Shown: positions 18,616 to 48,933 of the stretch, piece after piece
Position numbering within the stretch: the first letter of the stretch is position 1
Layout of the letters: each line of letters opens with the position of its first letter
Virus record (IMG/VR): IMGVR_UViG_2881966637_000002
Span: 1-64,000 of that record
Source of the DNA: a virus
Lineage: Duplodnaviria; Caudoviricetes
Length of the DNA: 64,000 nucleotides
Reading direction: 5' to 3' (one strand)
The notes under the pieces: model-generated
Databases searched by the model: none
What the model saw: only the letters and a program-made list of their open reading frames with translations
Told to the model about the DNA's origin: nothing
Position numbers and translations under genes: made by a program

Positions 18616-18945
18616 TCAATGTGCCAGGACCGTCGCGGTCAGGTACAGATTTTCGTGCGTGTTGTCGTCGTAAAATACCGTGACCGCTTTGGTCGTGGTG
18701 AACTGGGTAGCCCCTTGCTGCCGGTGGTATTCGGGCAGGCTGGGTGGAGCCGCGTAGTCCACGTAGATCCCATTCTGGTCGAAGAATGCCGTTGTACAAC
18801 TACAATCGGCACTCACCGTCCGGATCGCGGGTCCGGCTTCGATCCGGGTAAAAATGCCCCGTCTTATTTCCCGCAGATGCACTTTGCCTATGTCTACGGT
18901 CTGCGGCCCGAAATAACTGACCTGGGGGGGTGGTTGGGTTATCAT
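18616..18945 (-). CDS. DUF1573-like Ig-fold protein
   Basis: DIGKV...IRTVSADCSCTT (CxCT motif) and terminal L.L.ATV, as in Bacteroidota DUF1573 domains. Confidence 0.6.
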   Translation of the reverse strand: MITQPPPQVSYFGPQTVDIGKVHLREIRRGIFTRIEAGPAIRTVSADCSCTTAFFDQNGIYVDYAAPPSLPEYHRQQGATQFTTTKAVTVFYDDNTHENLYLTATVLAH

Positions 18946-21047
18946 GCGTATTGCCTGGTGTTGTTGGTATACGAGTTTCTATACCCCGGTAAGCGGATAA
19001 ACTCGTCGGCGTCCGGCGTCCGGGTATACGAATCGGGTTGGTCGGTATACCGGCCGAGCTGGATATATTCGCTGTAGCCGGCCAAGAGCTGTTCGCTTTC
19101 CTGTTCGGTAAACGAACGGTCCTTCGTGGCGTGTAGCAGGTAGAGTAAGCAGTGGAAGGCCGAGCCGATGTCGTCATTCTCCCCCGAGCCCCAGAGCAGC
19201 AGGCTTTCCAGCAGCGGCACCAGCGTGATGTGGTGATGGCGGTTGCTGGCTAAGTACTGATAGCCCAGAGCGGTGAGCTCGGTCTTGACCCCACCCTTCA
19301 CCTCGATACCGGGTGTATGGTCATTGATCCACCACAGCCGGTGCGACTGGTTCCGGTCGCGCAGCCAGTCGGGAAACGCGTCGGTGTTGTATTCGTAAAT
19401 GGTTTGCTGCACGTCGTAGAGCAGCATCCCTTTGTAAAACTCGTGGTAGGTCGCCTGCATGTCGGGCAGTTTGTCGTAGTACAGGGCGACGGGCATATCG
19501 TTGTTATCACCCAGCAACAGCGTCGGTTGCCGGTAGATGATCATGCAGTTGCGCGAGTCCCGCTTTTTAAGTTTTTGACCCGGCTTGGCTTTTTTGTACA
19601 CGTCGTCAATCGCGCCGACGTGCAGGTTCGGAATTTTGTGGTTGGGTAAACCCGCCTGGTTGATCCGCCAAGGGCCGCGAAGCTTCTCCGGCGTACCGGG
19701 GGCGTCGGGAATGAACTCCACCTTTTTGTTATCAGACCCCCGGATGTACTCAATTTTGCCGCTCATCCACAACTGATCGAAACCGTGGGACGTCACGTAG
19801 CCGATCTGCGACTTGATCTTAAGCTGATCATAGGCAAAGGAGGCCGAGGGCTCGAACGCTTCCTGCGGGGTCAGCGGGTTCTCGACCAGTTCTTTGGCAT
19901 ACTTCTCGCCCGACCCCTCACTTTGTTTGCGCAGGGCCATGATATGCGCCAGTGCGTCGTCCACCCGACTACGACCGGTACGTTCATCAATGAACCCTAA
20001 CAACGCTTTGGTTTTGGGCGTGAAGTGGCTTTTCGCCTTATAGGCTTCGGGGTTGAAAAAGATCGTTTTGTAGTTGGAGGATTTGTTGATTACGGCGTTG
20101 GACGTGCCGCCAATCACCATCATACCCCATTTAAGGTCACCACCTTCCAGACAGTCCTTGTTCTCGACGTAGAAGTTATCCAGGCTATCCCCGGTCCAGA
20201 GCCCGGCTTCCACCGCCGTCAGCTTGGTTAGTCGCATCGACTTGAACACGCCGGCACTGGCCTCGTTGGGCACGAGCCGATACTGTATCCAGTTGTGAAC
20301 GATGTAGGACGAACGGCCCGTGAAATAGCCCACGGCAAAGTCGTCCTGATTCTCGACCACGACTTCTAAAGCCCGCCCGTTCCAGGTTTTGAAAAACGGG
20401 TGGATGTGCTCGGTATACAGTGTTTTGAACCAGCCGCGTTCGGCCAGTTTCGGCTTCTCGGTGGGGTAGCCTCTACCAATGTAGCGTTCCCGACCGGCCA
20501 TGAAAATGAAGTGGTAGCTGTCCACGCCCAGAAATTCCATCTGCGTATAGCCGATGGTCCGGGGTTTGGCAAACACCGAGTTCTTCGCGTTGATACTGGC
20601 CCCGCCCGCCAAATCGCGGTAGCGGTTGCGCCACATCATCGACATGATCTCGTCGTCGTTGTCCCGGTAGAACGGCGCGTCCCAGCCCGTTATTTCTTTG
20701 GTCTGGTTATCCTGACGCGGGATCTTGACGAAGTTCAGGTACCAGTAGTGGTAGCCGCAGATGTATTTGCCGGTTACGGGCTCGGTCCACCCTTTCTTGA
20801 TCCGGGTCAACTGCTCTTTCCACCAGGCCCACGACTTGTCGCCCCTGGTCTTGGGCGCGTCGGGAATACGCTGTTGCAGGACCGGCCGGTAGAGGATCTG
20901 CACCGACTCGTGCAGGTGACTGATCTCGGGCGACGGGGTGCCGGCGTCAAGGGTCTGGACAGGGACCGGGGTATGAAGCGTCGAAGCCGACACCGCCAGG
21001 GCGGTAGCGGCTACCAATGCTTTTTTAACAAATCCCTTTTTGTCCAC
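18942..21047 (-). CDS. terL: Terminase large subunit
   Basis: WKEQ..R...G....G.YI.G.HYWYLNF N-terminal motif, Walker A-like FAKPRTIGYT, Walker B LTAVEAG, IGGTS, ENPLTPQEAF, and RNase H-like HVGAIDD ... YEYN ... ENDD. Matches crAss-like/flavobacterial TerL. Confidence 0.88.
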   Translation of the reverse strand: MDKKGFVKKALVAATALAVSASTLHTPVPVQTLDAGTPSPEISHLHESVQILYRPVLQQRIPDAPKTRGDKSWAWWKEQLTRIKKGWTEPVTGKYICGYHYWYLNFVKIPRQDNQTKEITGWDAPFYRDNDDEIMSMMWRNRYRDLAGGASINAKNSVFAKPRTIGYTQMEFLGVDSYHFIFMAGRERYIGRGYPTEKPKLAERGWFKTLYTEHIHPFFKTWNGRALEVVVENQDDFAVGYFTGRSSYIVHNWIQYRLVPNEASAGVFKSMRLTKLTAVEAGLWTGDSLDNFYVENKDCLEGGDLKWGMMVIGGTSNAVINKSSNYKTIFFNPEAYKAKSHFTPKTKALLGFIDERTGRSRVDDALAHIMALRKQSEGSGEKYAKELVENPLTPQEAFEPSASFAYDQLKIKSQIGYVTSHGFDQLWMSGKIEYIRGSDNKKVEFIPDAPGTPEKLRGPWRINQAGLPNHKIPNLHVGAIDDVYKKAKPGQKLKKRDSRNCMIIYRQPTLLLGDNNDMPVALYYDKLPDMQATYHEFYKGMLLYDVQQTIYEYNTDAFPDWLRDRNQSHRLWWINDHTPGIEVKGGVKTELTALGYQYLASNRHHHITLVPLLESLLLWGSGENDDIGSAFHCLLYLLHATKDRSFTEQESEQLLAGYSEYIQLGRYTDQPDSYTRTPDADEFIRLPGYRNSYTNNTRQYA

Positions 21048-25794: not shown

Positions 25795-26712
25795 CTAGTT
25801 TCGGGTCAGTGCCTTCGCCAGCCGGGCTTTCCCGCCTTTTTCCGCACCCAGATCGTAGTGCAGCTTGGCGAAATATTTAGTGCGCAGGTGCGGGTTAAGC
25901 ACGGTTGCGATCAGCGTCATATCTTCTTTGGACAGGTTCTCCAGTGCCTTGTCCAGTTCGCCGTTCAGAATGAAATCCTGTACGAACGTGGCGTCCTCCG
26001 CTTCGTAATCGTGACCGAAGGGTTTGTAGCCGGCGATGAACTCGCGCAGCTCTTTGCGGTCCGAAGCCGTTTTGTCAGCGGCCTCACGGGCTTTCTGCCG
26101 GGCCTGTTCCTCGACCGACTCCAGCCACTGTTTCGCGTCGCTGCGCAGGGTGGCCGCGTAGCGTTTGCCGTCCTCGTTGAGCACGTCGTCCTCCACGTAT
26201 TCGGCCATTTTCTGATCGAAGCCGCGTTCGGTAAAGCCGCGTCCCAGCATATTCCGGACGTTGGCCTCTACCAGTAGTTTGTCGTCCGCCAGTCTGGTGT
26301 CGTCGTTATCGTACTGACGCGACAGGAACTCGCGGTAGTCCCGGTAGCCGGGCGTGTTGGCGAGCATATGTTCTACGTGGCTGGCAGCGGTGAGATCGGC
26401 GTAAAACTTTTCGGCGTCGATCACTTCCCCCTCCTTCACGCTCTGCTCCCCGAATTGCTCTTTGTACAAGGCCGCCCAGTCCGGAGCCTGTAGTTCAGTT
26501 TTGTCCGGCAGCGTCAGGTACTCGGGTGTCTCGGGCGTCTCGGTGCTAACGGACGGGCCGGTAACGGGTTGAGCCGCCACTTTCTGCAACGCGGTTTTAT
26601 CCGCGTCTGACAAAGACGGGGTGTCGAGTACCGTTTCCTGTTCGGCAGGCGTGATACCGGCGTCGGCCAGGAAAGCGGCTTGTTGCTGGGCGGGGGTGAT
26701 GAAATCGCTCAT
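25795..26712 (-). CDS. Probable capsid scaffolding protein
   Basis: Acidic, helical, coiled-coil 305 aa immediately upstream of the MCP. Confidence 0.55.
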   Translation of the reverse strand: MSDFITPAQQQAAFLADAGITPAEQETVLDTPSLSDADKTALQKVAAQPVTGPSVSTETPETPEYLTLPDKTELQAPDWAALYKEQFGEQSVKEGEVIDAEKFYADLTAASHVEHMLANTPGYRDYREFLSRQYDNDDTRLADDKLLVEANVRNMLGRGFTERGFDQKMAEYVEDDVLNEDGKRYAATLRSDAKQWLESVEEQARQKAREAADKTASDRKELREFIAGYKPFGHDYEAEDATFVQDFILNGELDKALENLSKEDMTLIATVLNPHLRTKYFAKLHYDLGAEKGGKARLAKALTRN

Positions 26713-26798
26713 AAACGGGCAGAAGTCGTAGTTGGGATATGGTTTCTAACAGCGACAAAAAAACATGGTATAAATATGGTATTTAGCATAAATTGAAC

Positions 26799-26806
26799 TA
26801 CATTTG
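26799..26806 (+). promoter_or_regulatory. Bacteroidota primary-sigma -7 element (TACATTTG)
   Basis: Exact TAnnTTTG in an AT-rich divergent intergenic region, 27 nt upstream of the ORF at 26834. Confidence 0.65.
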
Positions 26807-26833
26807 TCCAGCAGTTAATAGTGTTTACGAAAA

Positions 26834-27328
26834 ATGAACGGAACCGACATAGAGCGACGGGTGGCCGAGCTCGAATCCACGGTGGAAAGCTTCTTCTGGC
26901 AGTTCCAGACCGAGCATCTGGACCGGTGTACGCTGACAAGAGCCATCCGCGAAACGATACTCGACTACTTCAAAATCAGCTTGCAGGAATTGACCGGAGC
27001 GGGTCAGATCGGAACGGGTAAAGGTGGCGGCTACGCGATTCGCACCAAGTCGGCTTACGACTTGCGGATGATGCTGGTCAGGGAGTGGACGGTGCTGCTC
27101 ATGCGGCAGTGCTGCCAGATGGAGTGGGAGCCGTTGCGCCGGGTATACCCCTGGTGTTTTCAGACCACGTTCATGGGCGCGTACCACAAACTCAACGCGC
27201 TGTACGCCGACCCGAATCATCAGGACCACGAACTCTGGATCACGTTGCTGCGGGACGTACGGGAGCGGGCGCATCGGAACGGCATTGATACGCGGCCGGT
27301 AGACATGGAGATCAGTCGGGCGTCGTGA
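26834..27328 (+). CDS. Hypothetical protein
   Basis: 164 aa, ATG after A-rich leader, 4-nt overlap (GTGA) with the next gene. Confidence 0.65.
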   Translation: MNGTDIERRVAELESTVESFFWQFQTEHLDRCTLTRAIRETILDYFKISLQELTGAGQIGTGKGGGYAIRTKSAYDLRMMLVREWTVLLMRQCCQMEWEPLRRVYPWCFQTTFMGAYHKLNALYADPNHQDHELWITLLRDVRERAHRNGIDTRPVDMEISRAS

Positions 27329-27675
27329 ACATCATCACCACGATACCAAAGCATAAATATGCGTCGTACGCGGAGCTGGAGTACGTGCTGCGGCACACGG
27401 ACGGGGCGGAAGGCGGGTTCTGGCTGGTCAACACCAAGACATTACCCAAACAGTGTCGTGTAGGCGAACATTGCTACATGGTGTACGACGGACAGGTTAG
27501 GGGCTACTTCACTATCGTGGATATGGACTGGTCGGAGAACTACCGGAAGCTGCATCGGATTGGGAAGCGTCGAACCACGCGCTGCATTGTACTGGCCAAC
27601 TGGGTACCGATCCCGGCCCAGCCGCACGTCGGGTTTCAGGGCTATCGGTACACGGCGTTGAACCCGTTGAGTTGA
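27325..27675 (+). CDS. PUA/ASCH/EVE-like nucleic-acid-binding protein
   Basis: VGEHCYMVYDGQVRGYF.I and C-terminal GFQGYRY, typical of PUA-superfamily (DUF1489/ASCH-like) proteins. Confidence 0.55.
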   Translation: MNIITTIPKHKYASYAELEYVLRHTDGAEGGFWLVNTKTLPKQCRVGEHCYMVYDGQVRGYFTIVDMDWSENYRKLHRIGKRRTTRCIVLANWVPIPAQPHVGFQGYRYTALNPLS

Positions 27676-27806
27676 TAACGAAACTATCTGAATGAGAACG
27701 ATAGGTACCAGAGCGGATTGATCACCCGCCAGCCCGTGCCAGGGTCAAGCGATCTGCGGTCGGCACAGCCGCAGACGTCTCTCCGAACGTGTCGGGCCGA
27801 GCGCAG

Positions 27807-27833
27807 GCCGGGTGAAAAAGACCGGCGTTTTTT
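27807..27833 (+). terminator. Hairpin plus T-tract (terminator/attenuator-like)
   Basis: GCCGG-GTGAAAAAGA-CCGGC followed by GTTTTTT. Confidence 0.45.
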
Positions 27834-27854
27834 AACCCAATTAACAATCAAAAC

Positions 27855-28085
27855 ATGGAGCAGGAACTGACATTCGGCCAGAAAGCGGTCGGGCTTTTAT
27901 TTAACCCATCCGGCGACGATGCGGTGGGGCAGTGCAAACAAGGGTTTGCGGACTTGATTGATCAGATGAACAATCTGCGCCAGACCTCGACCAGTAACGA
28001 TCAGAAACGTCACGCCAGTGTCGCGATCACTGAGATGGAAGGTGCCCAAATGCGGGCGGTCAAGGCACTTACCTGGAACGATTGA
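27855..28085 (+). CDS. Acb2/Tad1-like helical-hairpin protein (candidate cyclic-nucleotide sponge)
   Basis: 76 aa with FNPSG, K..FADLID and R.AS.AIT..E.AQM.AVKA.T, similar to the C-terminal helix of Tad1/Acb2-type sponges. Confidence 0.65.
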   Translation: MEQELTFGQKAVGLLFNPSGDDAVGQCKQGFADLIDQMNNLRQTSTSNDQKRHASVAITEMEGAQMRAVKALTWND

Positions 28086-28166
28086 CGAAATAAAAGGCCG
28101 ATGACTCACGGGAGAGGCCACGAACGCGATTGAACCGTGTGACAGCCGGGAATAGACCGGCAACAT

Positions 28167-28248
28167 TGCGTAGAGGTGGATAGTGGTTAGCCACGACGCG
28201 GCATGTCTGCGTTCCGTAAGGTTGTGAGTTCGATTCTCACCTACGTAA
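28167..28248 (+). tRNA. tRNA-like element with non-canonical anticodon loop (possible pseudo-tRNA)
   Basis: Acceptor TGCGTAG/CTACGTA; D-stem GTGG/CCAC with TGG loop; anticodon stem ACGCG/TGCGT with loop GCATGTC; 11-nt variable region; T-arm GTGAG-TTCGATT-CTCAC. No encoded CCA. Confidence 0.7.
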
Positions 28249-28362
28249 CAACCGCAGGGCTGGTGCCTTGTATGGTGTGGATAGAAGCGGATAAGCCGGG
28301 CTGGTTTCTGGCCTGGCTTATTTTTTTAGCACTGGACAAACTACTTATAGGCGATACTGAAA

Positions 28363-28905
28363 ATGTCCAAAATTATTTTCCTTGACGTGGATGGTGTGTT
28401 GAACTCAGAACTGTTCTACGGCCAGACGATCCGGAACGCGAAAAAGCAACTCCGGAAAGAGGTGAAAAGCGAGGAGCGAGAACGCTTTGATTACCACCTG
28501 GACCAGATCGACCAGCAGGCCGTCGAACGGCTCAACGGTATTATTCACGATACCGGCGCGAGAGTTGTTTTGTCGTCGTCCTGGCGGATCGGCAATAGTC
28601 GGGAGTATATGCAGTCCCTGCTCGAAGCGAAGGGGTTTACGGGACAGTTGATCGGCCGGACGCCCCGGCTGGACGGGCAGCGCGGCAAAGAGATCGACGC
28701 CTGGCTGAATTACTTCGGCATTATCCATCTGGTCGAACGGTACGTGATTCTGGACGACGATTCGGATATGACCGATTACCAGCTTGCCAACTACTACATC
28801 CACTGTGATTCGTATTGCGGCCTATCCCCTACCGTCGCCTACAAAGCAACACACATTCTAAATGGTGATTGGCGGGGCCAATTCCGGGGAATAACTACAA
28901 AATAA
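28363..28905 (+). CDS. HAD-superfamily phosphatase, Swiss-Army-Knife RNA-repair type (HAD_SAK_2-like)
   Basis: IIFLDVDGVLN, VVLSSSWR, G.TP, RG.EI..WL, YVILDDDSDM. Confidence 0.88.
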   Translation: MSKIIFLDVDGVLNSELFYGQTIRNAKKQLRKEVKSEERERFDYHLDQIDQQAVERLNGIIHDTGARVVLSSSWRIGNSREYMQSLLEAKGFTGQLIGRTPRLDGQRGKEIDAWLNYFGIIHLVERYVILDDDSDMTDYQLANYYIHCDSYCGLSPTVAYKATHILNGDWRGQFRGITTK

Positions 28906-29015
28906 TTAACGCGTTTGGAGACGATGAGGCTACACCGGGTCAATAGTCGTGTCGAATAATTGATCGAAAATAAACACGTTGCGTCAATGTGTTCGTTCGC
29001 TAAACATTTGAGGAG

Positions 29016-29251
29016 TTAATCTTTTGAAGGTGGCACCCAGATCACGTACTGCGTAAGAGAAATTACGACGATGTAAAGAAACCAGACGGAACTGGTCATG
29101 GATAGGTTAAACGCACTGTCGCCAGAATACTTACCTACTTCGTTCAGAGCCAAGTTGTAGAACACCACAAACAGGGCAAGGGCGGAACCAATCGACCATA
29201 TTGTACGGCCCGCAGGGGTCTGGTCCTGAAAAAATCTTTGAACTTGTTTCA
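29016..29251 (-). CDS. Small 2-TM membrane protein
   Basis: Probable ATG at 29251 (MKQVQRFF), two hydrophobic helices, divergent from the XRE gene. Confidence 0.5.
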
Positions 29252-29296
29252 TTGTGTGGCTTGAAATGAATCCACAAAACAAACTACTTTTACCAT

Positions 29297-29497
29297 ATGC
29301 TAAAGCAGCAGACAGCCGAACAACTAAAAAATGCACGAAAAGCGCAAGGGCTCACCCAGAAGCAGGTGGGCGAATTGCTGGGCATTGACGAGTCTACCTA
29401 CAACCGTTACGAAAGCGGAACGGCTAATTTATCGCTGGACACAATAGAGAAAATAGTTAAGGCTCTTAATAAATCGGTTACAATCCTGATACAGTAA
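29297..29497 (+). CDS. XRE/Cro-CI family HTH regulator
   Basis: LKNARKAQGLTQKQVGELLGI..STYNRYESG...SLDTIEKIVKAL. Confidence 0.93.
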   Translation: MLKQQTAEQLKNARKAQGLTQKQVGELLGIDESTYNRYESGTANLSLDTIEKIVKALNKSVTILIQ

Positions 29498-29514
29498 TAT
29501 ATTTTTTTGCCTAC

Positions 29515-29549
29515 AAACTTGGATTATATTCAAGTTTTATCTACTTTTG
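29515..29549 (+). promoter_or_regulatory. Operator-like palindrome AAACTTG-N9-CAAGTTT overlapping a promoter with -7 TACTTTTG
   Basis: Inverted repeat at 29515-21/29531-37 and TAnnTTTG at 29542-49, directly downstream of the XRE gene. Confidence 0.6.
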
Positions 29550-29622
29550 GATAAGCAAAAGCCCGTACCATCTGTCGCCAAACTTCGGATACGGGCCTTG
29601 TGACACACAAACCAATAGAGAT

Positions 29623-30024
29623 ATGTGCAATGATCAAAAGTACAACGCGGCCATCGATTCCGCAAAACCTATTGAGTTGCCGGCTAACCCCACTCCGTCC
29701 ATTCGCCTTGCTTTGTTGGCTGGTCCACAGTTACAGGAAATGTTTGAGGCATTTATTCAGCATAAGTATCGCCTGTACGAAGAAGCCGCTAACGAACTGG
29801 CTGCTCATGACCTTGACGCTTATTTTGACACTACCCAGCGCATTTCATTGATAAATGACACGTTGTACGAGGTTCTTTTTATGCTCAACGAAAAAGTGGT
29901 AGAGTTTTCTAATGGAGGTGCGGACGCCTGCGGTGTCAGCTTGGCAAAAGAAGTGCAACAGAAGCGCAGAGAAGAATTAGCGGCCCTTCTCACCACAACG
30001 CAAACAGCAATCGGTCATGAATAA
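29623..30024 (+). CDS. Hypothetical helical protein
   Basis: 133 aa, overlaps the start of the next gene. Confidence 0.65.
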   Translation: MCNDQKYNAAIDSAKPIELPANPTPSIRLALLAGPQLQEMFEAFIQHKYRLYEEAANELAAHDLDAYFDTTQRISLINDTLYEVLFMLNEKVVEFSNGGADACGVSLAKEVQQKRREELAALLTTTQTAIGHE

Positions 30025-30976
30025 GGTATTCAGACACCGTATCGGGTTCACTGACTTTGTGAAACGATCAAAGCTGGTGCATGGAGATTTTTATGGCTAT
30101 ATGGAGCCAGAGGGATTCAGGATGGATAAAAACATAGAGATTATCTGTCCGCTACATGGCTCATTTATGCAGCGCCCTCAACATCACGTTCGTGGCGTAA
30201 AATGCCCTAGTTGCGCAAGGGAAATAACCAATCGAAAGCCTTTGGGTGCGGCTACATTTATCGCCCGCTCAAAGTCGGTACACGGCGATCTTTACGACTA
30301 TAACCGAGTTGTTTACGTTAGAAATGATGTCAACGTAGAAATAGTCTGCCCTATTCACGGCGTTTTTTTGCAGACCCCGGACTCGCACTTAGTAGGTAGA
30401 GGGTGTAATTTCTGCTCTAAAAATCAGCGTCTATCAACCGAGCAATTTTTGGAGCGGGCTAAGAAAGTACACGGAGACAAATACGACTATAGCCGCGTTG
30501 ACTATTGCTCCTACAACGTAAAGCTGACAATAGTTTGCCCTACACACGGAGCTTGGGAGCAACTGCCCGGCAACCATTTAAGAGGCAAAGGTTGCTCTTT
30601 TTGCGCCAAACAAAATGTTAGTCCGAAAAACATTCGCAAGTCAGCATGGGTCAGCAGGCAGAAGGGTCGCCGGTCCACCCTTTATCTTATTGCGTGCAAA
30701 ACCAGAGACACCACGTTTCAAAAAATCGGCATTACGCACAACAGCCTAAAAATGCGTTTTCGGGGAGCCCCATTTCTGTTTACCAAAATTTTGGCAATTA
30801 CCAGTCATGACGCAGGGTTAATTTATGATCTCGAAAAATTGGTCGCCAGACAGTTAAGGCCGTTTCGGTACATGCCCGGTGATAGATTTGGGGGATATAC
30901 CGAATGTTATAATTTCCCTAACACAGAGAGTGCTGTTGATGTGATAAAAAAGACTTGGCGTACGATTAAACAATAA
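30017..30976 (+). CDS. Putative homing endonuclease with three DUF723-like Zn-ribbon repeats and a GIY-YIG/T5orf172-like domain
   Basis: 3x F..R.K.VHGD.Y.Y...I.CP.HG...Q.P..H..G..C..C. C-terminal LYLI...FQKIGIT...R...LEK...GGYTEC. Confidence 0.8.
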   Translation: MNKVFRHRIGFTDFVKRSKLVHGDFYGYMEPEGFRMDKNIEIICPLHGSFMQRPQHHVRGVKCPSCAREITNRKPLGAATFIARSKSVHGDLYDYNRVVYVRNDVNVEIVCPIHGVFLQTPDSHLVGRGCNFCSKNQRLSTEQFLERAKKVHGDKYDYSRVDYCSYNVKLTIVCPTHGAWEQLPGNHLRGKGCSFCAKQNVSPKNIRKSAWVSRQKGRRSTLYLIACKTRDTTFQKIGITHNSLKMRFRGAPFLFTKILAITSHDAGLIYDLEKLVARQLRPFRYMPGDRFGGYTECYNFPNTESAVDVIKKTWRTIKQ

Positions 30977-31020
30977 AAAGAGGTCCGCACTAACGATCAG
31001 TGCGGACCTCTTTTTATTGT
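30970..31020. terminator. Bidirectional intrinsic terminator, perfect 22-bp inverted repeat
   Basis: ACAATAAAAAGAGGTCCGCACT-AACGATC-AGTGCGGACCTCTTTTTATTGT between convergent genes. Confidence 0.9.
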
Positions 31021-34000
31021 TCTTCTTCAATGTCGTCCTTATCCTCGGTAGCTAGTTCACGAATAAGTCGGGTCGCGGTAGAGGAAAAGCCGGTTGATTT
31101 TGCCCCGAACTCAGTCAGATCATAGATCAGTTTGTCCATGATCTGCTTTTGTTTCGCTTCGTCCTCCTCGCTGAATAGCTTACCAGCCGAAGTAATAGCG
31201 TCGATACCCGTTTGCAAATTGTCAGCGGCCGGGATTTCCAGTAGATCGTTGTCTCGGTATCCCTGCTGCTGGCTGATATAATAATCAATGCCCGCCGTGG
31301 CAAACGTAGGGGCGATACCCGTAATGTTGCGCACGATGTCAAAGCCAATCTTCTGCGGCACCGCTTCGTAATCGGGTTCGTCTCCGCCGAGAATCGACAA
31401 TAGCAGATTGACGCCAACGCCGACCATAGCGGTGTAGACCGCATTCAATACAACCGCGTATCCAACGGTGCTGGCCAGTTGTCGCAAGGCGGCTTCGGCT
31501 TCGGGCGTCCCTTTTCCTGTTTTGAGCCATGTACCCATTGAGTCCACCAAGGTGTTGAAAATCTTGATCGACTGCCCGCCGTACAAGCCCAATATCTTAT
31601 TGATAAAGTTGAACGAGGTTTGCAGCGGGGCCTTCTCCGATAGCTGACCCATTACATTCGTTTTGTACGTAACAGCTTTGGTCAGATCAGCTACCCGGTC
31701 CCACCACGCATCGCTATTCAGGGCCAGCCCTTCACTGGTAGCCTGTTCTTTCGCGGCCTGCACAAAGGCATAAAACACGGCCCGGTCGCTTTTTCGCATC
31801 GGCCCCATTCCGTATTCCTGGGTGTATTCATCGAATTTGCCCAGCACCTTTTGTGCCTGGGTCAAGGTCTGTTTATTAACGCCCAGATCCTGGAACGAAG
31901 GGTTATCGACAAACGACGTTTGCGAACTAAACGCCCGGTCGAGCAACACGGCGAACCGGCGTTGCTGTTTCTTTCGGGCTTCCTCATCGGTAAACGTGTA
32001 GCCAAGCAATTCTTCGGCGTAGGGCCGCTCTATCGTGTCCAGCCCGGTTAGTCGGCCGGTGAGTCCGCTTTGCTCTTTATCGTTGGCCAGTACCGTGGAT
32101 GGCGCGTCGAAGTCTTTAAACGCACCGGCCGTTGTTTTGAACAAAATGCCAATGGCCTCGCCCGAACGCAAAAACTCGTCTTTTATAATGCCCTGCCCCA
32201 CGGCCCCGAAATAACTACCGGCCTGCTTCAGTGGCACCGAAACACTTAACGAAAACACGCTTTGCGTGTATCGTTTCATGATCTGATCGAACCAGCGGTT
32301 GTACCGGTTCTCGTCCCGGTTCTTAGCCTGCTCCCTGCGGTAAGACTGTAGCCGGTCGCGCTCCTGAGACAGATACGATTTGATCTGGTCTTTCTGGCTC
32401 CCTTCGTAATCGGATTCGATGCTGTCCAGTAACCCGTTGAGGTTGTTGACCACCTTCGTGTTTTCCAGCACATCGCTGACCGCGTTAAAATAGGTCTGCA
32501 TGGTTTGTACCGGGTCGGTCGCGAGTATTGCCCCCGATGGGCCGTTACGAGCAATTAACTGACGACTTTCTTCCAGTTTCTTAGCGTAACCCCGGCTTTG
32601 TTGTTCGGCCGACTGGTCGCTACCAAAGGTGGTCAACGGCCAGTAATAGTTGACCCGCTCGAACGGCTGGGCCGGATTGGCCTCATTCACTTCCTGCTCC
32701 AGCAAATCGGTTACGTCCGGGTTATTGAAGAATGTAGCAAGGCTAGAAAAAGCGTCAATTTCCTCCTGCGCTCCGGTTTTGGTAAACCGGTCATTGAGTG
32801 TGTTGAAGTCCTCACGGCTCAGTAAGATATAATGAGTTTTGTCATTCTCCCGGTCGTAATAAACTGCCCCTCGCGGTGTACGCCGTAGTCCACCTTCCGG
32901 GTTTTTCTCGTACAATGTAACCGGCTCTGGTGCTATCTCGCTGACAGCATCCGCTTTGCCGTAACTGGAAAACTGGCTTCTCGACTTACCAACAATGTCC
33001 ATCACGACGCCGACCGGCAGGTAGACCGGACGCCGGATAACGGCTCCCGTTTCATCGTAGTCATAGGTATTGACTTCGATGGTTCGCACTGTATCGGCCG
33101 TGTTGCCCGTGTTCAGCGAATAGCCAGCCAGCAGCCGGGTAGCTTGTATCTGGGCCGACTCCAATAGTACGCGGGCGTAAGCGGCTTTATCCGCTGATTC
33201 GCGCTTCACGGAGTGGATGAGTTCTTTCAGTAAGCCCCCCGAACTATCAATGAAGTTGGTAAACGTTTCCAGGTTCAGTAAGTGCCGTAGCGAAAAGGCC
33301 GACCGGAACAGTTGCCCTCGATACCCCTCTGCGTTATACGCGGTATCAAACCCTTCCTTAATCGCGTTGGCAATTTTGTACGCATCGACCTTAACCAGCG
33401 TACCGGACCGGGCGAAGAACAGTTCTTTGGGCCGGTTCCAGACCATTGTTTCGGGCGAAACAAGTTCAAATCCCGTTTCCTGCGCTACTTTCTTAATGTA
33501 GTCGCGGTCGGTCTTAGTCCAGAACATTTTAGGCGTGTAGTACAGCCGGGCCGATACCTCAATTGGCACTTCGCTATACATCTGCATCGCTTGTTGCCGT
33601 AGACTGTCGGGCGTTACGATGGTCCCCAGACTAAACTGCATGGCCTCGGGGTTGGTGTCGATACCCGACGTATCGAAGCCGGCATTGATCTGATCAATCA
33701 CGGTAGCGGCCCAGTTGGATAACTTGACGTCGGCCAGCTTCTGGTCGGAGACAAGGCCAATGGCGTTGCCGATCTCCGCAAACAGCCCGTCCAGCCACCG
33801 GCTAAATTTGCTCTTGCGGTCGCTGAGCCGGAACAACGCTCCCTTATCACCTATCGCCGTTTCCAACGCTTCAATTTCCTGCTCGGCAACGGGCAGGTTT
33901 TTATAATAGGAGTTGGCCTGAAGCTTGGTGAAGTAGCCCGACTGCCGCACTAAGGAAACGCCTTGCTGGAATAGGTCTGGGTACTGGGTGCGGGCGACTT

Positions 34001-45006: not shown

Positions 45007-48000
45007 TTATCTAAATACGGTTGAAAACGCGACCAGCACCACCTGCTTGTTCTCGGCATCGTTACCGATCTCAATTTCCACCGTCATATAGTCGTCCCGG
45101 AGTCGCTGTTTGGTGCCCGACCAGTCTACTTCGTGCATGGCGTAGCGCAGCGCATTCTGAAAGAACCGGAACCGCTCGTCATTCGCCGGAAACAGCGTAT
45201 GCACCTGCGCTGGTCCGCCGTCCGGCGTCCAGTGGGTGATCCGGGTGATTTTCCGCCAGCTATCGGCACTGATATTAATCTGGCCGGCGTCGAACGTTTT
45301 TTTCTGGTTGGGATAAGGATTGACAATGAACCTGACCACGGACGGGTAGAACGTGCCGAAGTACTGACCGAACGGCCCCCGGTCCATCGCCCATAACGTG
45401 TTAGGCTGGCTTCGGGCCGACGCCAGCAGCAGCCGGCCGCGATTGACAAACCGGCTATAATCGCCGTCCTTGATCTCGACAAACGAACTCATAGCCGTGC
45501 TGTACACAGCGGTGAACGTGGGTATGCCCGGTTTGTAAAACGAGAACAGGATTTCCTCGTTGTCGCGGTTGGTACCGGCCACGCACTGCCAGTTCCGCAA
45601 GCTGTCGATCCCGGCACCGGCCAGTTCATACGTCAGGCGTTTAAGCTGATCACTGAACAGCTCACTCGCACTCAGACTGTCGAGCCCTCCGGTATACCGC
45701 AGCAACGCCCCCATCCGGGCATCCCACGCCCCCACCTGCCCATTGCTGGACCAGACGGATTCGGGGTGCTGGGTACCGAACTCGGTGCTGATCGTGATCA
45801 TCCGGTTGAACACGGCTCCGGAATCCGTTTCGATCACGCCGGCATCGGTCGTCTGGTAGCTCAGCGGGTCGAGCGGCAATATACCGACGCCCCGTTCCTG
45901 CCAGCACAGGAGCCCCCGGCCCTGACCCCGTTGCAACTTGACAATCGCGCCCAAACTGCCATTGGCCTGGCCCGCGTCGCCCGGTAGCCGGCTGCGCCAG
46001 GCGTCAATAAACTGGCCGGGTTGTTTGGGTGGCGTCCAGCTAAAGCCGGCCGGGTCGTTGGTCACGGCCAGAAAGTCGCGGGGCATGACCGCGTAAGGAT
46101 TGACCCTGGTGTCCACGGTCAACGCTTTGTTGTAGTTCCAGTCCTCGGGCTGATCCGGATTAATCCCGTTTTGAAACTGCTCTCCTTCCTCCCGGCACGT
46201 GGTCCGTTCGGGCCGGAACGCGTTGCGGGCCAGCGTTCGGCCGGGTCGCAACGCGAGGTTGTATTTGGATTCAACCGGAACAACGTGTCCAATGCCGTAA
46301 TCGCTTTGCCGGCAGCTATCGGAATAAAAGGGGTAAATGCGGGCGAAATCAAACAGCGTGACGTACGCCGGTCCGCCCCAGACCTCAATGTCGTTAAACT
46401 CGAAAAATTGACCCGCAGCGGTTTCCACCGGTTTGGCCATACCGAGTAACGACTCGGTGATGGGCTGAAAGTGGCCGCAGGGGTAGTACGGTTCTATGGA
46501 CGACTGCGCATCGACCGGCTGGGTCGTGCGCTGGATGTAGTTGACGATCCGGAACGTGCCGGGGTTCTCTTGGGAGCCGGCGTCTATACTGGTCCAGTCC
46601 GCCGTTTTTACAATCACGGCGTTTCGCTGCAACAGCCCGTCGCCGTAGATATAGAGTCCGCCCGCGCCCGACCACTGCGGGTGGGTCTGGGTTTCGATCT
46701 TCAGGTTCAGGTTGTTTTTGTCCAGCTCTTTGTAGGTGGTGTTGAAGCCATCGCTGTGCAGTTTGGCCAGCGTCAGCCTCGTCTCACTGCCCAGGCGCGG
46801 CCGGCCGCGCGCGAGCAGCGTAGGGAGCCAGGATAGGTTCGTTGCGGTCCGGTACGACTTTGTATAACCGTGGGTGACGTGGGTTTTGTCAGGCAGGGCC
46901 CGGCTGTAGCCGTCCAGCGCAATTACGTTGCTGGAGTACGCCCGCGATACGATGCCGACGTGGTGGAGCACATCGCCCTCCTCCAGTTCTTTGAGTCCAC
47001 CTTCGATCAGCACATCCGGGCTGTGGTAGGTCAGGTAGTAGGGCTGGCTGCGGGTTTCGCGCCAGTCGCCTTCATTGGGTGTCGTGCAGGGCGTAGGCCA
47101 GGGGTAGCTGTGGCGGTTCTGCCCATCGAAATCGGTGGAGAACCAGTTCAGGTAAGGCAGGGGAAACGGCTTTTCCGACCGGCCCGAATCCAGCTTACAT
47201 TCGTCGGTGCGACAAACCGGAAACACGACGCCCTGGTGCAGCAGCCGGGGAACGCGCTGCCGCTTCACGATCATAAAGCCGCTCACGTTCAGTTTGCCCT
47301 CGCTGTCGTACAAATCGGCCACCGGTAGCCGGAGCCCGGAGATCAATACACCCATCGGCACCAGCTCATAAATACCGGCCGGGCTGAGTTTGGTCAGTGC
47401 GTAGTGGTCGGTTTCGCCAGCCGGCCCTTCGTCGTACAACTGGGGAAAGGTGAAGGCGGGTAGCGGGGTGACGAACATCGGCTGGCCCAGCCGGTCGAAC
47501 AGCAATACGCCGAACTCCTCGGTTTCGCCCCGGAAGTACGAGCCGTGCAGCCACTCCCAGACTTGGCCTTTGTCGTTGAGGTAGTCGTTGGTAACGGTGT
47601 AGGTTTCGGTCAGGCCGTTGAACGTTTTACGCACCACACTACCCAGCGTCACGGTTGACGAATTGGTCAGCGGGTTGCCATCGGGCTTGCCTGACGTCGG
47701 ATTGGCAACGGGCCGGAAGGTGGGCTCTTTGACCTCATCCAGCACACATCGTTTCAGGAAGGGCTGAAAGCGGACGGCCGACGCATTCATAGTAATCGGC
47801 GGGAGCCGCAGCAAGTCGCCCTCCACCAGCCGGTTGTTTTCCGGGGCCAGGGTACCAACGCGCAGCACCGTTTCGTGCCGCTGGTTCAGTTCGGCTACCG
47901 TGATTTCGTCTCCGCTGTTATCAACGATCTCCACCGTTATCGCCGTGCTGCCTGACAACGCCGGGGTGATGGTTATGGGTGGCAGGGTCCGGATTGAGGT

Positions 48001-48933
48001 GGGTAAGCCTTCCGTTTCGTAGTACAGAACGGCGACAACCACCCGCTCCCAGCGGACATCGACCCGGCTGAGCTCCCAGCGCAAACTTTCCTGGGTTACG
48101 ACGCCTGACGCGCCCATGACCCGGTTGTGGTGCGAGAGCCGAACGCCGGTCGTCGGGATCTGGCTGGGGAATCTGTCGAAGCCCAGCACGTCCAGCTTTT
48201 CGCTGGTGACAAACACGCGCCGGGTCACGGGCGTGAACGCGGACCGTACGCCGTCCCGCGACTCGTAGGCTATCGCGATTTGATACGTGCCGGATAGTAG
48301 CTTGCCAATACCCCGGCCCAGGAGCTTAATGGTAGGAAAAACGACGTCCGGCCGTTCCCGGAATCCGTGAGCCGACCAGGACGACGGGTACGGGGTGGTG
48401 GTCGGTGCATGGCGCAGGTTCAGCACATGCTTCGTGCCGCGCCGGTTCGTCCAGTACACGCGCTCTACCGACTCGTTCTCGTACGCAATTTCAATGTCAA
48501 AGGTGTCGGTCGTTCGCCAGCCCAGCCGCTCGGGAGCCGCGCTGCCCCGCTTGGACCAGGGCTGGTTCTTGGCGTGCGGATCATTGTCGTCACTGTACAG
48601 GACGCGAAAGGCACCCGTAACCACGGCTCCGTTCACCTCACTATCGTAGTCCCAGAAGCCGACGATACTGGTCGTGTTGTTGGTCAGGAATAGCACGTTG
48701 CCGCGCTGCGCTTCGGCGTCGCCAACGATGTGGTAGCCTTGCGTCAGGGTTAAGGTGAGTAGATTGCCGGGGCTGTTGGCCAGGGACAGGCTTTTCCCAT
48801 CGGACGTATCGCTGCGATTCCGGTTGTACAGAGTCCGTACGTTCCGGCCGTAGCGATACGTCCCTTGCTGTTGCAGGTGTGCATCCACATCCTGCTTCAT
48901 GCCGCCAGAAAAAACCTGTGTGTGCGTAGGCAT
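45007..48933 (-). CDS. Tail stabilisation / muzzle protein (crAss-like, P22 gp10-like role)
   Basis: 1308 aa. N-terminal FSGGMKQDVD....YRY.RNVR, RVYWTN, G.L.SGTYQ.A..Y, YFRGE...FGV.LFD..GQ, FGTQHPESV, C-terminal RLRD.Y. Confidence 0.8.
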   Translation of the reverse strand: MPTHTQVFSGGMKQDVDAHLQQQGTYRYGRNVRTLYNRNRSDTSDGKSLSLANSPGNLLTLTLTQGYHIVGDAEAQRGNVLFLTNNTTSIVGFWDYDSEVNGAVVTGAFRVLYSDDNDPHAKNQPWSKRGSAAPERLGWRTTDTFDIEIAYENESVERVYWTNRRGTKHVLNLRHAPTTTPYPSSWSAHGFRERPDVVFPTIKLLGRGIGKLLSGTYQIAIAYESRDGVRSAFTPVTRRVFVTSEKLDVLGFDRFPSQIPTTGVRLSHHNRVMGASGVVTQESLRWELSRVDVRWERVVVAVLYYETEGLPTSIRTLPPITITPALSGSTAITVEIVDNSGDEITVAELNQRHETVLRVGTLAPENNRLVEGDLLRLPPITMNASAVRFQPFLKRCVLDEVKEPTFRPVANPTSGKPDGNPLTNSSTVTLGSVVRKTFNGLTETYTVTNDYLNDKGQVWEWLHGSYFRGETEEFGVLLFDRLGQPMFVTPLPAFTFPQLYDEGPAGETDHYALTKLSPAGIYELVPMGVLISGLRLPVADLYDSEGKLNVSGFMIVKRQRVPRLLHQGVVFPVCRTDECKLDSGRSEKPFPLPYLNWFSTDFDGQNRHSYPWPTPCTTPNEGDWRETRSQPYYLTYHSPDVLIEGGLKELEEGDVLHHVGIVSRAYSSNVIALDGYSRALPDKTHVTHGYTKSYRTATNLSWLPTLLARGRPRLGSETRLTLAKLHSDGFNTTYKELDKNNLNLKIETQTHPQWSGAGGLYIYGDGLLQRNAVIVKTADWTSIDAGSQENPGTFRIVNYIQRTTQPVDAQSSIEPYYPCGHFQPITESLLGMAKPVETAAGQFFEFNDIEVWGGPAYVTLFDFARIYPFYSDSCRQSDYGIGHVVPVESKYNLALRPGRTLARNAFRPERTTCREEGEQFQNGINPDQPEDWNYNKALTVDTRVNPYAVMPRDFLAVTNDPAGFSWTPPKQPGQFIDAWRSRLPGDAGQANGSLGAIVKLQRGQGRGLLCWQERGVGILPLDPLSYQTTDAGVIETDSGAVFNRMITISTEFGTQHPESVWSSNGQVGAWDARMGALLRYTGGLDSLSASELFSDQLKRLTYELAGAGIDSLRNWQCVAGTNRDNEEILFSFYKPGIPTFTAVYSTAMSSFVEIKDGDYSRFVNRGRLLLASARSQPNTLWAMDRGPFGQYFGTFYPSVVRFIVNPYPNQKKTFDAGQINISADSWRKITRITHWTPDGGPAQVHTLFPANDERFRFFQNALRYAMHEVDWSGTKQRLRDDYMTVEIEIGNDAENKQVVLVAFSTVFR

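Follow-up and report, generated by a model that had tools for sequence, protein, structure and literature searches.

Proteins of the Acb2 family, among them PaMx33 Acb2, T4 Vs.4, Acb2_41 and Acb2_43, divide between the signals of the cyclic oligonucleotide-based antiphage signalling system (CBASS) and those of Thoeris, and Tad1 is defined by an N-terminal beta-sheet domain ahead of its helical hairpin. A gene of the Acb2 family is part of the island described here, which lies at positions 26,799 to 28,905 of a 64,000-nucleotide stretch of viral DNA (Duplodnaviria; Caudoviricetes; positions 1 to 64,000 of the IMG/VR record IMGVR_UViG_2881966637_000002; this whole stretch is called the window below). 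The window corresponds to C1:88105-152104 of a 7.37-Mb bacterial genome in 27 contigs. A preliminary description had taken the island for a coordinated, RNA-centred anti-defence cassette. We consider it instead, with a probability of about 0.68, to be a mosaic accessory ('moron') island in a prophage of the Spirosoma family, composed of at least three independently acquired modules, in which a counter-defence role is based on evidence for the Acb2 module alone. While the earlier finding would have meant a new multi-part anti-defence cassette together with a new anti-defence gene, the evidence leaves a further member of the catalogued Acb2 family in an ordinary hypervariable accessory gap, and its use lies mainly in a correct annotation.

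Described counterparts exist for other parts of the island as well. Phage tRNAs counter tRNA-targeting defences by supplying tRNAs, as set out in the reports on T5 tRNA-Lys against PARIS (PMC11464382) and on tRNA-Tyr against retron effectors (PMC11555353). The tRNA-like gene of the window resembles these in its tRNA shape and in being carried by a phage within an accessory region, but it differs from them by C33, U37, an AUG 'anticodon', the lack of CCA and sub-threshold scores in tRNA searches. The HAD phosphatase shares a strong Pfam match and the DxD nucleophile motif with the 'Swiss Army Knife' RNA-repair proteins and the phosphatase domain of T4 Pnkp; in contrast to the Swiss Army Knife RNA-repair system, it stands alone, and no RNA ligase, kinase or other repair domain is fused to it or adjacent to it in the window. 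The first open reading frame (ORF) of the island, ORF164, is similar in its predicted fold to domain IV of DnaA (Bac_DnaA_C), the whole DNA-binding domain being covered by residues 31-147. Unlike DnaA, it has no profile match and no AAA+ domain but an extra long N-terminal helix, and any binding to DnaA boxes would be putative.

Transcription units and mosaicism of the island

The four plus-strand ORFs at 26834-27328, 27325-27675, 27855-28085 and 28363-28905 were found exactly where the preliminary description had placed them, and the island would be transcribed in the direction opposite to the flanking late genes. In the arrangement that we propose, the first module would be a promoter-proximal overlapping pair consisting of ORF164, a probable regulator with the DnaA domain IV-like fold, and ORF116, which is possibly PUA-like. 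The second may comprise acb2, then a conserved leader with the tRNA-shaped, non-decoding RNA behind it, and would end at a strong terminator; the third would be the stand-alone HAD phosphatase.

The transcription signals bear directly on this division. The octamer TACATTTG (26799-26806, plus strand), located in an AT-rich divergent intergenic region, matches the -7 box of Bacteroidota promoters, ends 27 nt ahead of the first ATG, that of ORF164, and is the only exact plus-strand TAnnTTTG within 26700-29500. Its position makes a putative promoter plausible. A Bacteroidota promoter was taken to consist of a -7 TAnnTTTG plus a -33 TTTG at a distance of 19-21 nt, and no TTTG was seen at this distance from TACATTTG. 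The TAnnTTTG promoter claimed earlier is present as a well-placed box, but this box is a word that occurs in the window at chance frequency (28 found, 26.7 expected) and has no -33 partner.

A strong intrinsic terminator (28282-28329, plus strand), with a stem of 15 bp and U7 directly behind it, stands after the tRNA-like gene and ahead of the HAD gene. It folds with -23.3 kcal/mol at a z-score of -3.85, is equalled by 0 of 200 shuffled sequences and was also found by a consensus scan. A weaker hairpin (GCCGG/CCGGC followed by U6 at 27807-27833) precedes acb2, so that two such elements are situated within what had been described as one unit. ORF164 and ORF116 overlap through GTGA and therefore look like one pair. 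Because of these terminators and the absence of a second -7 box, acb2, the tRNA-like gene and the HAD gene need read-through or unrecognised promoters. As a separate observation, the terminator stretch 28264-28330 matches short stretches with 76-92% identity in about 11 other genomes of the family and a further one in the host at C12:411867-411921; it may be a dispersed terminator-like repeat. The intergenic spacer at 27676-27854 (plus strand), presented earlier as a structured RNA, folds about as well as its shuffled versions (z-score -1.06, and 0.18 for the inner part 27718-27800), gave no meaningful match in Rfam and had no match in 200 genomes of the family, which leaves the hairpin with U6 at 27807-27833 as its sole clear feature.

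Co-occurrence across phages, which the preliminary description had proposed as a check, was seen in none of 104 related loci. In the vicinity of Acb2-like genes, a relative of the HAD protein, ORF116 or ORF164 was present within 5 kb in 0 of 80 viral loci and any tRNA in 10 of 80, and at 24 viral loci with HAD relatives neither Acb2, ORF164, ORF116, a tRNA nor the leader motif was found. The Acb2 family is represented in one of 53 other genomes of the genus, and the complete island, used as a DNA query against the phage collection, gave no match. Metagenome contigs with 95-99% identity to the island carry its genes and have loose ends at 27675, 28378 and 28905; variant breakpoints fall at the spacer borders (27675/27680 and 27853), and most of the region 28938-31033 has no depth in related metagenome variants. 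A 116-nt deletion (27965-28080), which variants from a single study show in three runs, takes away the final 40 of the 76 codons of acb2, the gene thus being truncated in a sister phage population. Since the parts do not travel together and the breakpoints lie at gene borders, we regard them as mosaic cargo and not as a conserved cassette.

The reading originally put forward is a single early operon under a host-type promoter, in which a sponge, a tRNA decoy, an HAD enzyme healing RNA ends, a PUA-like reader of modified bases and ORF164 as an anti-defence protein would act in concert. All of these elements do lie on one strand within 2.1 kb and behind the only -7 box, but two terminator-like elements, one of them strong, stand between them, the 104 loci show no co-occurrence, and both the breakpoints at gene borders and the deletion of acb2 in a variant set the parts asunder. 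While the Acb2 assignment is solid, the predicted fold of ORF164 is that of a DNA-binding protein and the structured RNA is unsupported. The HAD_SAK_2 domain is named after RNA-repair proteins, but here it occurs alone, and the two homologues inspected have neither a ligase nor a kinase annotated next to them. That phage tRNAs defeat tRNA-targeting defences is documented, but in the cases described in the two reports (PMC11464382, PMC11555353) this is achieved by the supply of tRNAs. We consider such a coordinated cassette very unlikely and retain the mosaic island as the preferred explanation.

Several points weigh against this preference. Terminator read-through may still allow co-expression of the island genes, a search for sequencing runs that contain this DNA having listed none of RNA, and the DnaA-like assignment of ORF164 is derived from a structure predicted from six sequences, with no support by sequence profiles. 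Accessory and anti-defence genes are known to cluster, and the neighbours of acb2 therefore have a raised prior probability of being counter-defence genes even where synteny is lacking. In the tRNA-like gene no stem has been lost, the T loop is canonical and a variant replaces a G.U by a G-C pair, all of which argues for some selected function.

The Acb2-family protein, the host CBASS and the other gene products

The acb2-family gene (27855-28085, plus strand) codes for 76 amino acids and matches the Pfam family PF24729 (Acb2_Tad1_hairpin) with 33.2 bits at a cut-off of 27. The protein has 479 homologues, and all of the 120 listed carry PF24729, at 65-85% identity; the motifs FG.KAVG, FNPS and AQM.A are invariant. 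Its AlphaFold2 (AF2) model, with a predicted local distance difference test score (pLDDT) of 94.7, consists of helices at residues 7-11, 22-44 and 48-73, of which the last two are long and antiparallel, and contains no strands. A length of about 75 residues, a passed Pfam threshold and a predicted short N-terminal element followed by two long antiparallel helices are the features shared with the Acb2 family, whereas the model, having no strands, lacks the domain that defines Tad1. T4 Vs.4 (7uq2) was superimposed on the model with a Z-score of 6.8 and a root-mean-square deviation (rmsd) of 2.6 Å over 60 residues. As unrelated helical hairpins score equally, this match agrees with family membership yet is not diagnostic. 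Helical hairpins are too common for Foldseek to return a significant match for the model, and an Acb2 profile search of the PDB reached Vs.4 only at an E-value of 0.3.

The 76-residue protein is 59% identical over 73 residues to Acb2_41, which was positive against the CBASS of Escherichia albertii in transformation, liquid culture and plaque assay (y/y/y; Table S2, Hadary et al. 2025, bioRxiv 10.1101/2025.08.24.671296). Sequences of the type FGxKAVG...FNPSG...AQMWAVKA are also among the 4,204 Acb2 homologues compiled in that study (Table S1; bioRxiv 10.1101/2025.08.24.671296). Membership in the Acb2 sponge family is hence supported by sequence, in agreement with the sponge function that had been assigned to this ORF. 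From the identity to a tested homologue we infer that the product would sequester cyclic-oligonucleotide signals and so blunt CBASS. Acb2 proteins form hexamers that bind cyclic oligonucleotides, as the 76-residue protein may do too. As the family is split between CBASS and Thoeris signals, the ligand specificity of this particular protein is not readable from membership.

The assignment to the sponge family is further strengthened by a CBASS system in the host genome. A two-gene type I system at C1:1856821-1858422 encodes an oligonucleotide cyclase (229 bits in PADLOC, 88 bits to Pfam SMODS) and an adjoining 4TM effector (176 bits), and a target system is therefore at hand. The homologues of the 76-residue protein include one attributed to Fibrivirga, and the genomes bearing the leader motif include Spirosoma and Arsenicibacter, which suggests that the host is a member of the Spirosoma family. 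We thus see a natural pairing of Acb2 and CBASS inside one Spirosoma-family genome. The host CBASS has resolvase and integrase-fragment genes on its flanks and therefore itself appears to be located on a mobile island.

ORF164 (26834-27328, plus strand; 164 amino acids) begins with a long N-terminal helix, which is followed by a DnaA domain IV-like helix-turn-helix (HTH) domain at about residues 31-147. Five distant homologues were found among 1.84 billion representatives, and the AF2 model built from six sequences has a pLDDT of 82. All of the top 10 Foldseek matches of this model are DnaA domain IV. VIA scores against DnaA domain IV were Z 10.6, 10.2, 10.1 and 9.8, with coverage of the whole 94-96-residue domain and, for 3pvp_A, an rmsd of 2.9 Å over 96 of 96 residues; six DnaA entries scored between Z 8.7 and 10.6, the next unrelated fold Z 5.3. 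The Atlas led independently to phage Bac_DnaA_C clusters at 0.89. Sequence profiles gave no Pfam family at E-values up to 0.1, Bac_DnaA_C included, no PHROG and no NCBIfam. Judged from the model, ORF164 is most likely a DNA-binding protein with a regulatory role, and because of the DNA-binding fold we favour a regulator over the unknown, candidate new anti-defence gene that this ORF had been proposed to be.

ORF116 (27325-27675, plus strand; 116 amino acids), which shares the GTGA overlap with ORF164, encodes a small protein whose family is rare, just four homologues sharing words with it. The Atlas features place it near DUF3850-like and viral clusters at 0.96 with structural similarity at TM 0.67-0.79, a DUF1489 cluster standing at 0.67 and one named after DUF3850 at 0.70. 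DUF1489 is a member of the PUA clan. The PUA/ASCH-like character suggested earlier thus finds look-alikes in the Atlas, but the Pfam score to DUF1489 (18.7 bits) is below the cut-off of 25, and a profile search of the PDB returned no relative; we treat the PUA likeness as a weak lead.

The stand-alone HAD_SAK_2-type phosphatase (PF18143; 28363-28905, plus strand; 180 amino acids) scored 98.4 bits to its Pfam family at a cut-off of 27.5 and 117.7 bits to phrog_1818, a family with no assigned function. HAD motif I is present as DVDGV at residues 8-12, and a DDD is contained in the segment VILDDDSD, the DxD motif thus being in place; the HAD phosphatase domain recognised earlier is well founded. 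Homologues occur in 335 phage records, mostly of large T4-like and jumbo phages, and the 30 listed were all without a name. Healing of RNA ends by this protein would be deduced from the domain name only. Beside the homologues of RB43 and Vibrio phage ValKK3, the two that were inspected, no RNA-repair gene is annotated. In ValKK3, as the form found in KVP40-like phages, the homologue (KP671755 37998-38513) is located directly upstream of a gene for a bifunctional nicotinamide mononucleotide (NMN) adenylyltransferase/Nudix protein, and from this neighbour a nucleotide substrate appears as likely as an RNA end; a nicotinate-nucleotide adenylyltransferase gene is also nearby, and this setting hints at a nucleotide more than at RNA.

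An NCBIfam scan of ten ORFs gave no match for any of them, and PDB sequence searches with the 76-, 116-, 164- and 180-residue proteins singly yielded nothing useful.

The tRNA-shaped gene and the motif of its leader

The tRNA-like gene (28167-28248, plus strand) comprises 82 nt and forms a full cloverleaf with an 11-nt variable region and no encoded CCA. In its 7-bp acceptor, 4-bp D, 5-bp anticodon and 5-bp T stems, 21 of 21 pairs are intact, the T loop UUCGAUU is canonical and the GG of the D loop is present. The tRNA-like element noticed in the preliminary description is accordingly a complete cloverleaf, but it falls below the detection limits for tRNAs: it reached 25.7 bits with the Rfam tRNA family (RF00005) at a threshold of 29 (E-value 0.03), and ARAGORN draws it only at -ps80 and makes no call at default settings. 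The 7-nt anticodon loop GCAUGUC, with AUG at the place of the anticodon, is by its sequence non-decoding, since C33 and U37 do not allow normal decoding. The tRNAs of the T5 tRNA-Lys/PARIS and the tRNA-Tyr/retron cases reportedly do decode and resist cleavage, and are not decoys. A homologue of the tRNA-like gene was not found in 400 genomes of the family; the nearest tRNAs share just 51-55 of its 82 bases, a generic similarity. Three IMG/VR viral contigs have a tRNA-Met(CAT) about 465 nt downstream of an Acb2-like gene and thus show a looser form of the order acb2, then tRNA.

Directly upstream of the cloverleaf lies a conserved leader of 79 nt (28088-28166, plus strand), the 5' part of which is capable of forming a pseudoknot and is followed by a motif at 28140-28162. 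Stretches 92% and 89% identical to this leader are present in two other genomes of the genus, where they stand directly 5' of a canonical tRNA-Met(CAT) and a canonical tRNA-Tyr(GTA). In four copies of the leader, a loop segment reads CACGG or ACAGG and its downstream counterpart CCGTG or CCTGT, so that the two can pair each time, as would fit a pseudoknot. The cloverleaf begins 6 nt after the motif, which is the modal distance for real tRNAs. As the place that it fills behind this leader is taken by true tRNAs in sister prophages, we regard it as derived from a phage tRNA gene.

Such an origin could also mean that the cloverleaf is a decaying phage tRNA pseudogene and that the island, apart from acb2, is neutral hitch-hiking cargo. 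Failure at the thresholds of both tRNA detectors, the C33 and U37 that would prevent normal decoding, the absence of a homologue in the 400 family genomes, the canonical tRNAs behind the same leader in sister prophages and the deletion of the neighbouring acb2 itself in a variant are all compatible with decay. Against it stand the 21 of 21 intact stem pairs, a canonical T loop and D-loop GG, and a leader, a 6-nt spacing and a strong terminator that have all been retained. Furthermore, the two substitutions listed for the cloverleaf in the metagenome variants comprise one in the D loop and one (28208) that strengthens a stem pair from G.U to G-C, with none in the anticodon loop. We consider this combination of simple decay and neutral cargo unlikely, but the cloverleaf may be either a maintained mimic or a young pseudogene. 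For the mosaic island, the cloverleaf remains a non-decoding, tRNA-shaped part of the module that contains acb2.

The leader closes with 23 nt, TGACAG-CCGG-GAATAGA-CCGG-CA, that fit the general pattern YUGACAG-CCGG-GAA(N0-2)AGA-CCGG-CA of roughly 24 nt. When searched with 19 fixed bases and the terminal CA left unspecified, this pattern was detected in at least 118 contigs of IMG/VR and, among bacterial genomes of many phyla, in at least 119 contigs, while about a dozen hits are expected by chance in the genome collection of 596 billion bases according to our estimate. The two unspecified bases after the pattern were CA in 83 of 122 genome instances and 70 of 86 instances from viral contigs. 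Because of the excess over the chance estimate and this preference for CA, we treat the hits as one family, although the sequences flanking the motif are otherwise unrelated. The stem covaries, with CCGG/CCGG replaced by CCCG/CGGG, TCCG/CGGG or CCG/CGG. A tRNA on the same strand starts 4-9 nt downstream of the motif in 25 of 106 distinct viral instances, compared with just 4 of 122 in genome contigs. Copies were also found in phage P1 (NC_005856 71173-71197), between trnI and ban, and in the N4-like Stenotrophomonas phage Paxi, about 350 nt ahead of a tRNA cluster.

The motif belongs to no family of Rfam 15, which returned nothing at E-values up to 10 for the window and up to 0.1 for 19 motif loci, and no paper containing its sequence was found in the searchable literature. 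Among the candidates that were compared by eye, hammerhead, HDV-like, pistol and twister ribozymes, preQ1 riboswitches and attC sites did not fit the leader motif. A sigma-70 promoter was dismissed for want of a consistent -10 box. To our knowledge, P1 has no polymerase of its own, and for this reason a promoter for a phage RNA polymerase is an unlikely reading as well. Mimicry of RNase P RNA was considered in view of GGAAAGACCGG, which agrees in 10 of 11 bases with the CR-I sequence GGAAAGUCCGG of the host rnpB, but 5% of shuffled sequences and 3% of random genome pieces did equally well and the 5' half was not significant. We also dropped the idea that the motif is tied to the endonuclease-like ORF nearby, as none of the island proteins occurs in the 118 viral motif loci.

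With its short GC stem, its purine-rich GAA..AGA loop and its location in transcribed intergenic phage DNA, the motif may resemble the lambda boxB/nut hairpins and other short RNA signals of phages; a variation of 0-2 nt in the length of its loop, which looks like extrusion of bases, would add to this likeness. It differs from boxB/nut in its sequence, its span over many phyla, the invariant UGACAG and CA flanks and the frequent position 4-9 nt before tRNAs, and we know of no N-like partner. Our best guesses are that it serves as a processing or stabilising signal or as an antitermination hairpin. We tentatively put forward, as a possibility rather than a probable explanation, that it is a new, very widespread phage RNA signal, a 'punctuation' hairpin for processing, stabilisation or antitermination 5' of phage tRNAs, tRNA mimics and some mRNAs, and that the cloverleaf is a maintained non-decoding tRNA mimic and not a dead gene. 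The motif is kept unchanged in phages whose hosts are unrelated, P1 with its tractable genetics among them; it may indicate an unrecognised step in the making or protection of phage small RNAs and may in this respect matter more than the island.

The host has the motif a second time, on the minus strand of C21 at about 579950, 220 nt 3' of the tRNA-Met gene c[580193-580265]. Behind this copy comes a tRNA-like RNA of the form TTGCAGTA...GGGGCTGAGTGACCC...GGTTCGAATCC...TACTGCAA, which has an acceptor stem and a T arm but also about 100 inserted nt. Similar tRNA-like RNAs are present at two other motif loci, where ARAGORN at default settings calls no tRNA and Rfam has no match at E-values up to 0.1.

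The surrounding prophage gap

The island is flanked by late genes on the minus strand, on one side by the terminase large subunit (18942-21047) together with the head genes, on the other by a virion structural protein (45007-48933). An ORF of 2932 amino acids separates the island from the latter side; it matches no PHROG family and is probably a virion protein. A host tRNA-Pro gene is situated 1.5 kb ahead of the start of the window. The plus-strand gap 26834-30976 sits within this minus-strand late region of the prophage, and a gap of opposite strand inside a late region is the usual site of accessory cargo.

Beyond the island, the same gap contains further accessory cargo within 29016-30976, namely a 106-residue ORF on the minus strand and, on the plus strand, a 66-residue ORF of the XRE-type HTH class (Pfam HTH_3, 66.8 bits) and a 133-residue ORF. 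A 319-residue endonuclease-like ORF (30017-30976, plus strand) scored 199 bits to phrog_681 ('endonuclease'). This ORF has no depth in related metagenome variants and, with its repeated zinc-ribbon-like segments, looks like a homing-endonuclease-type gene.

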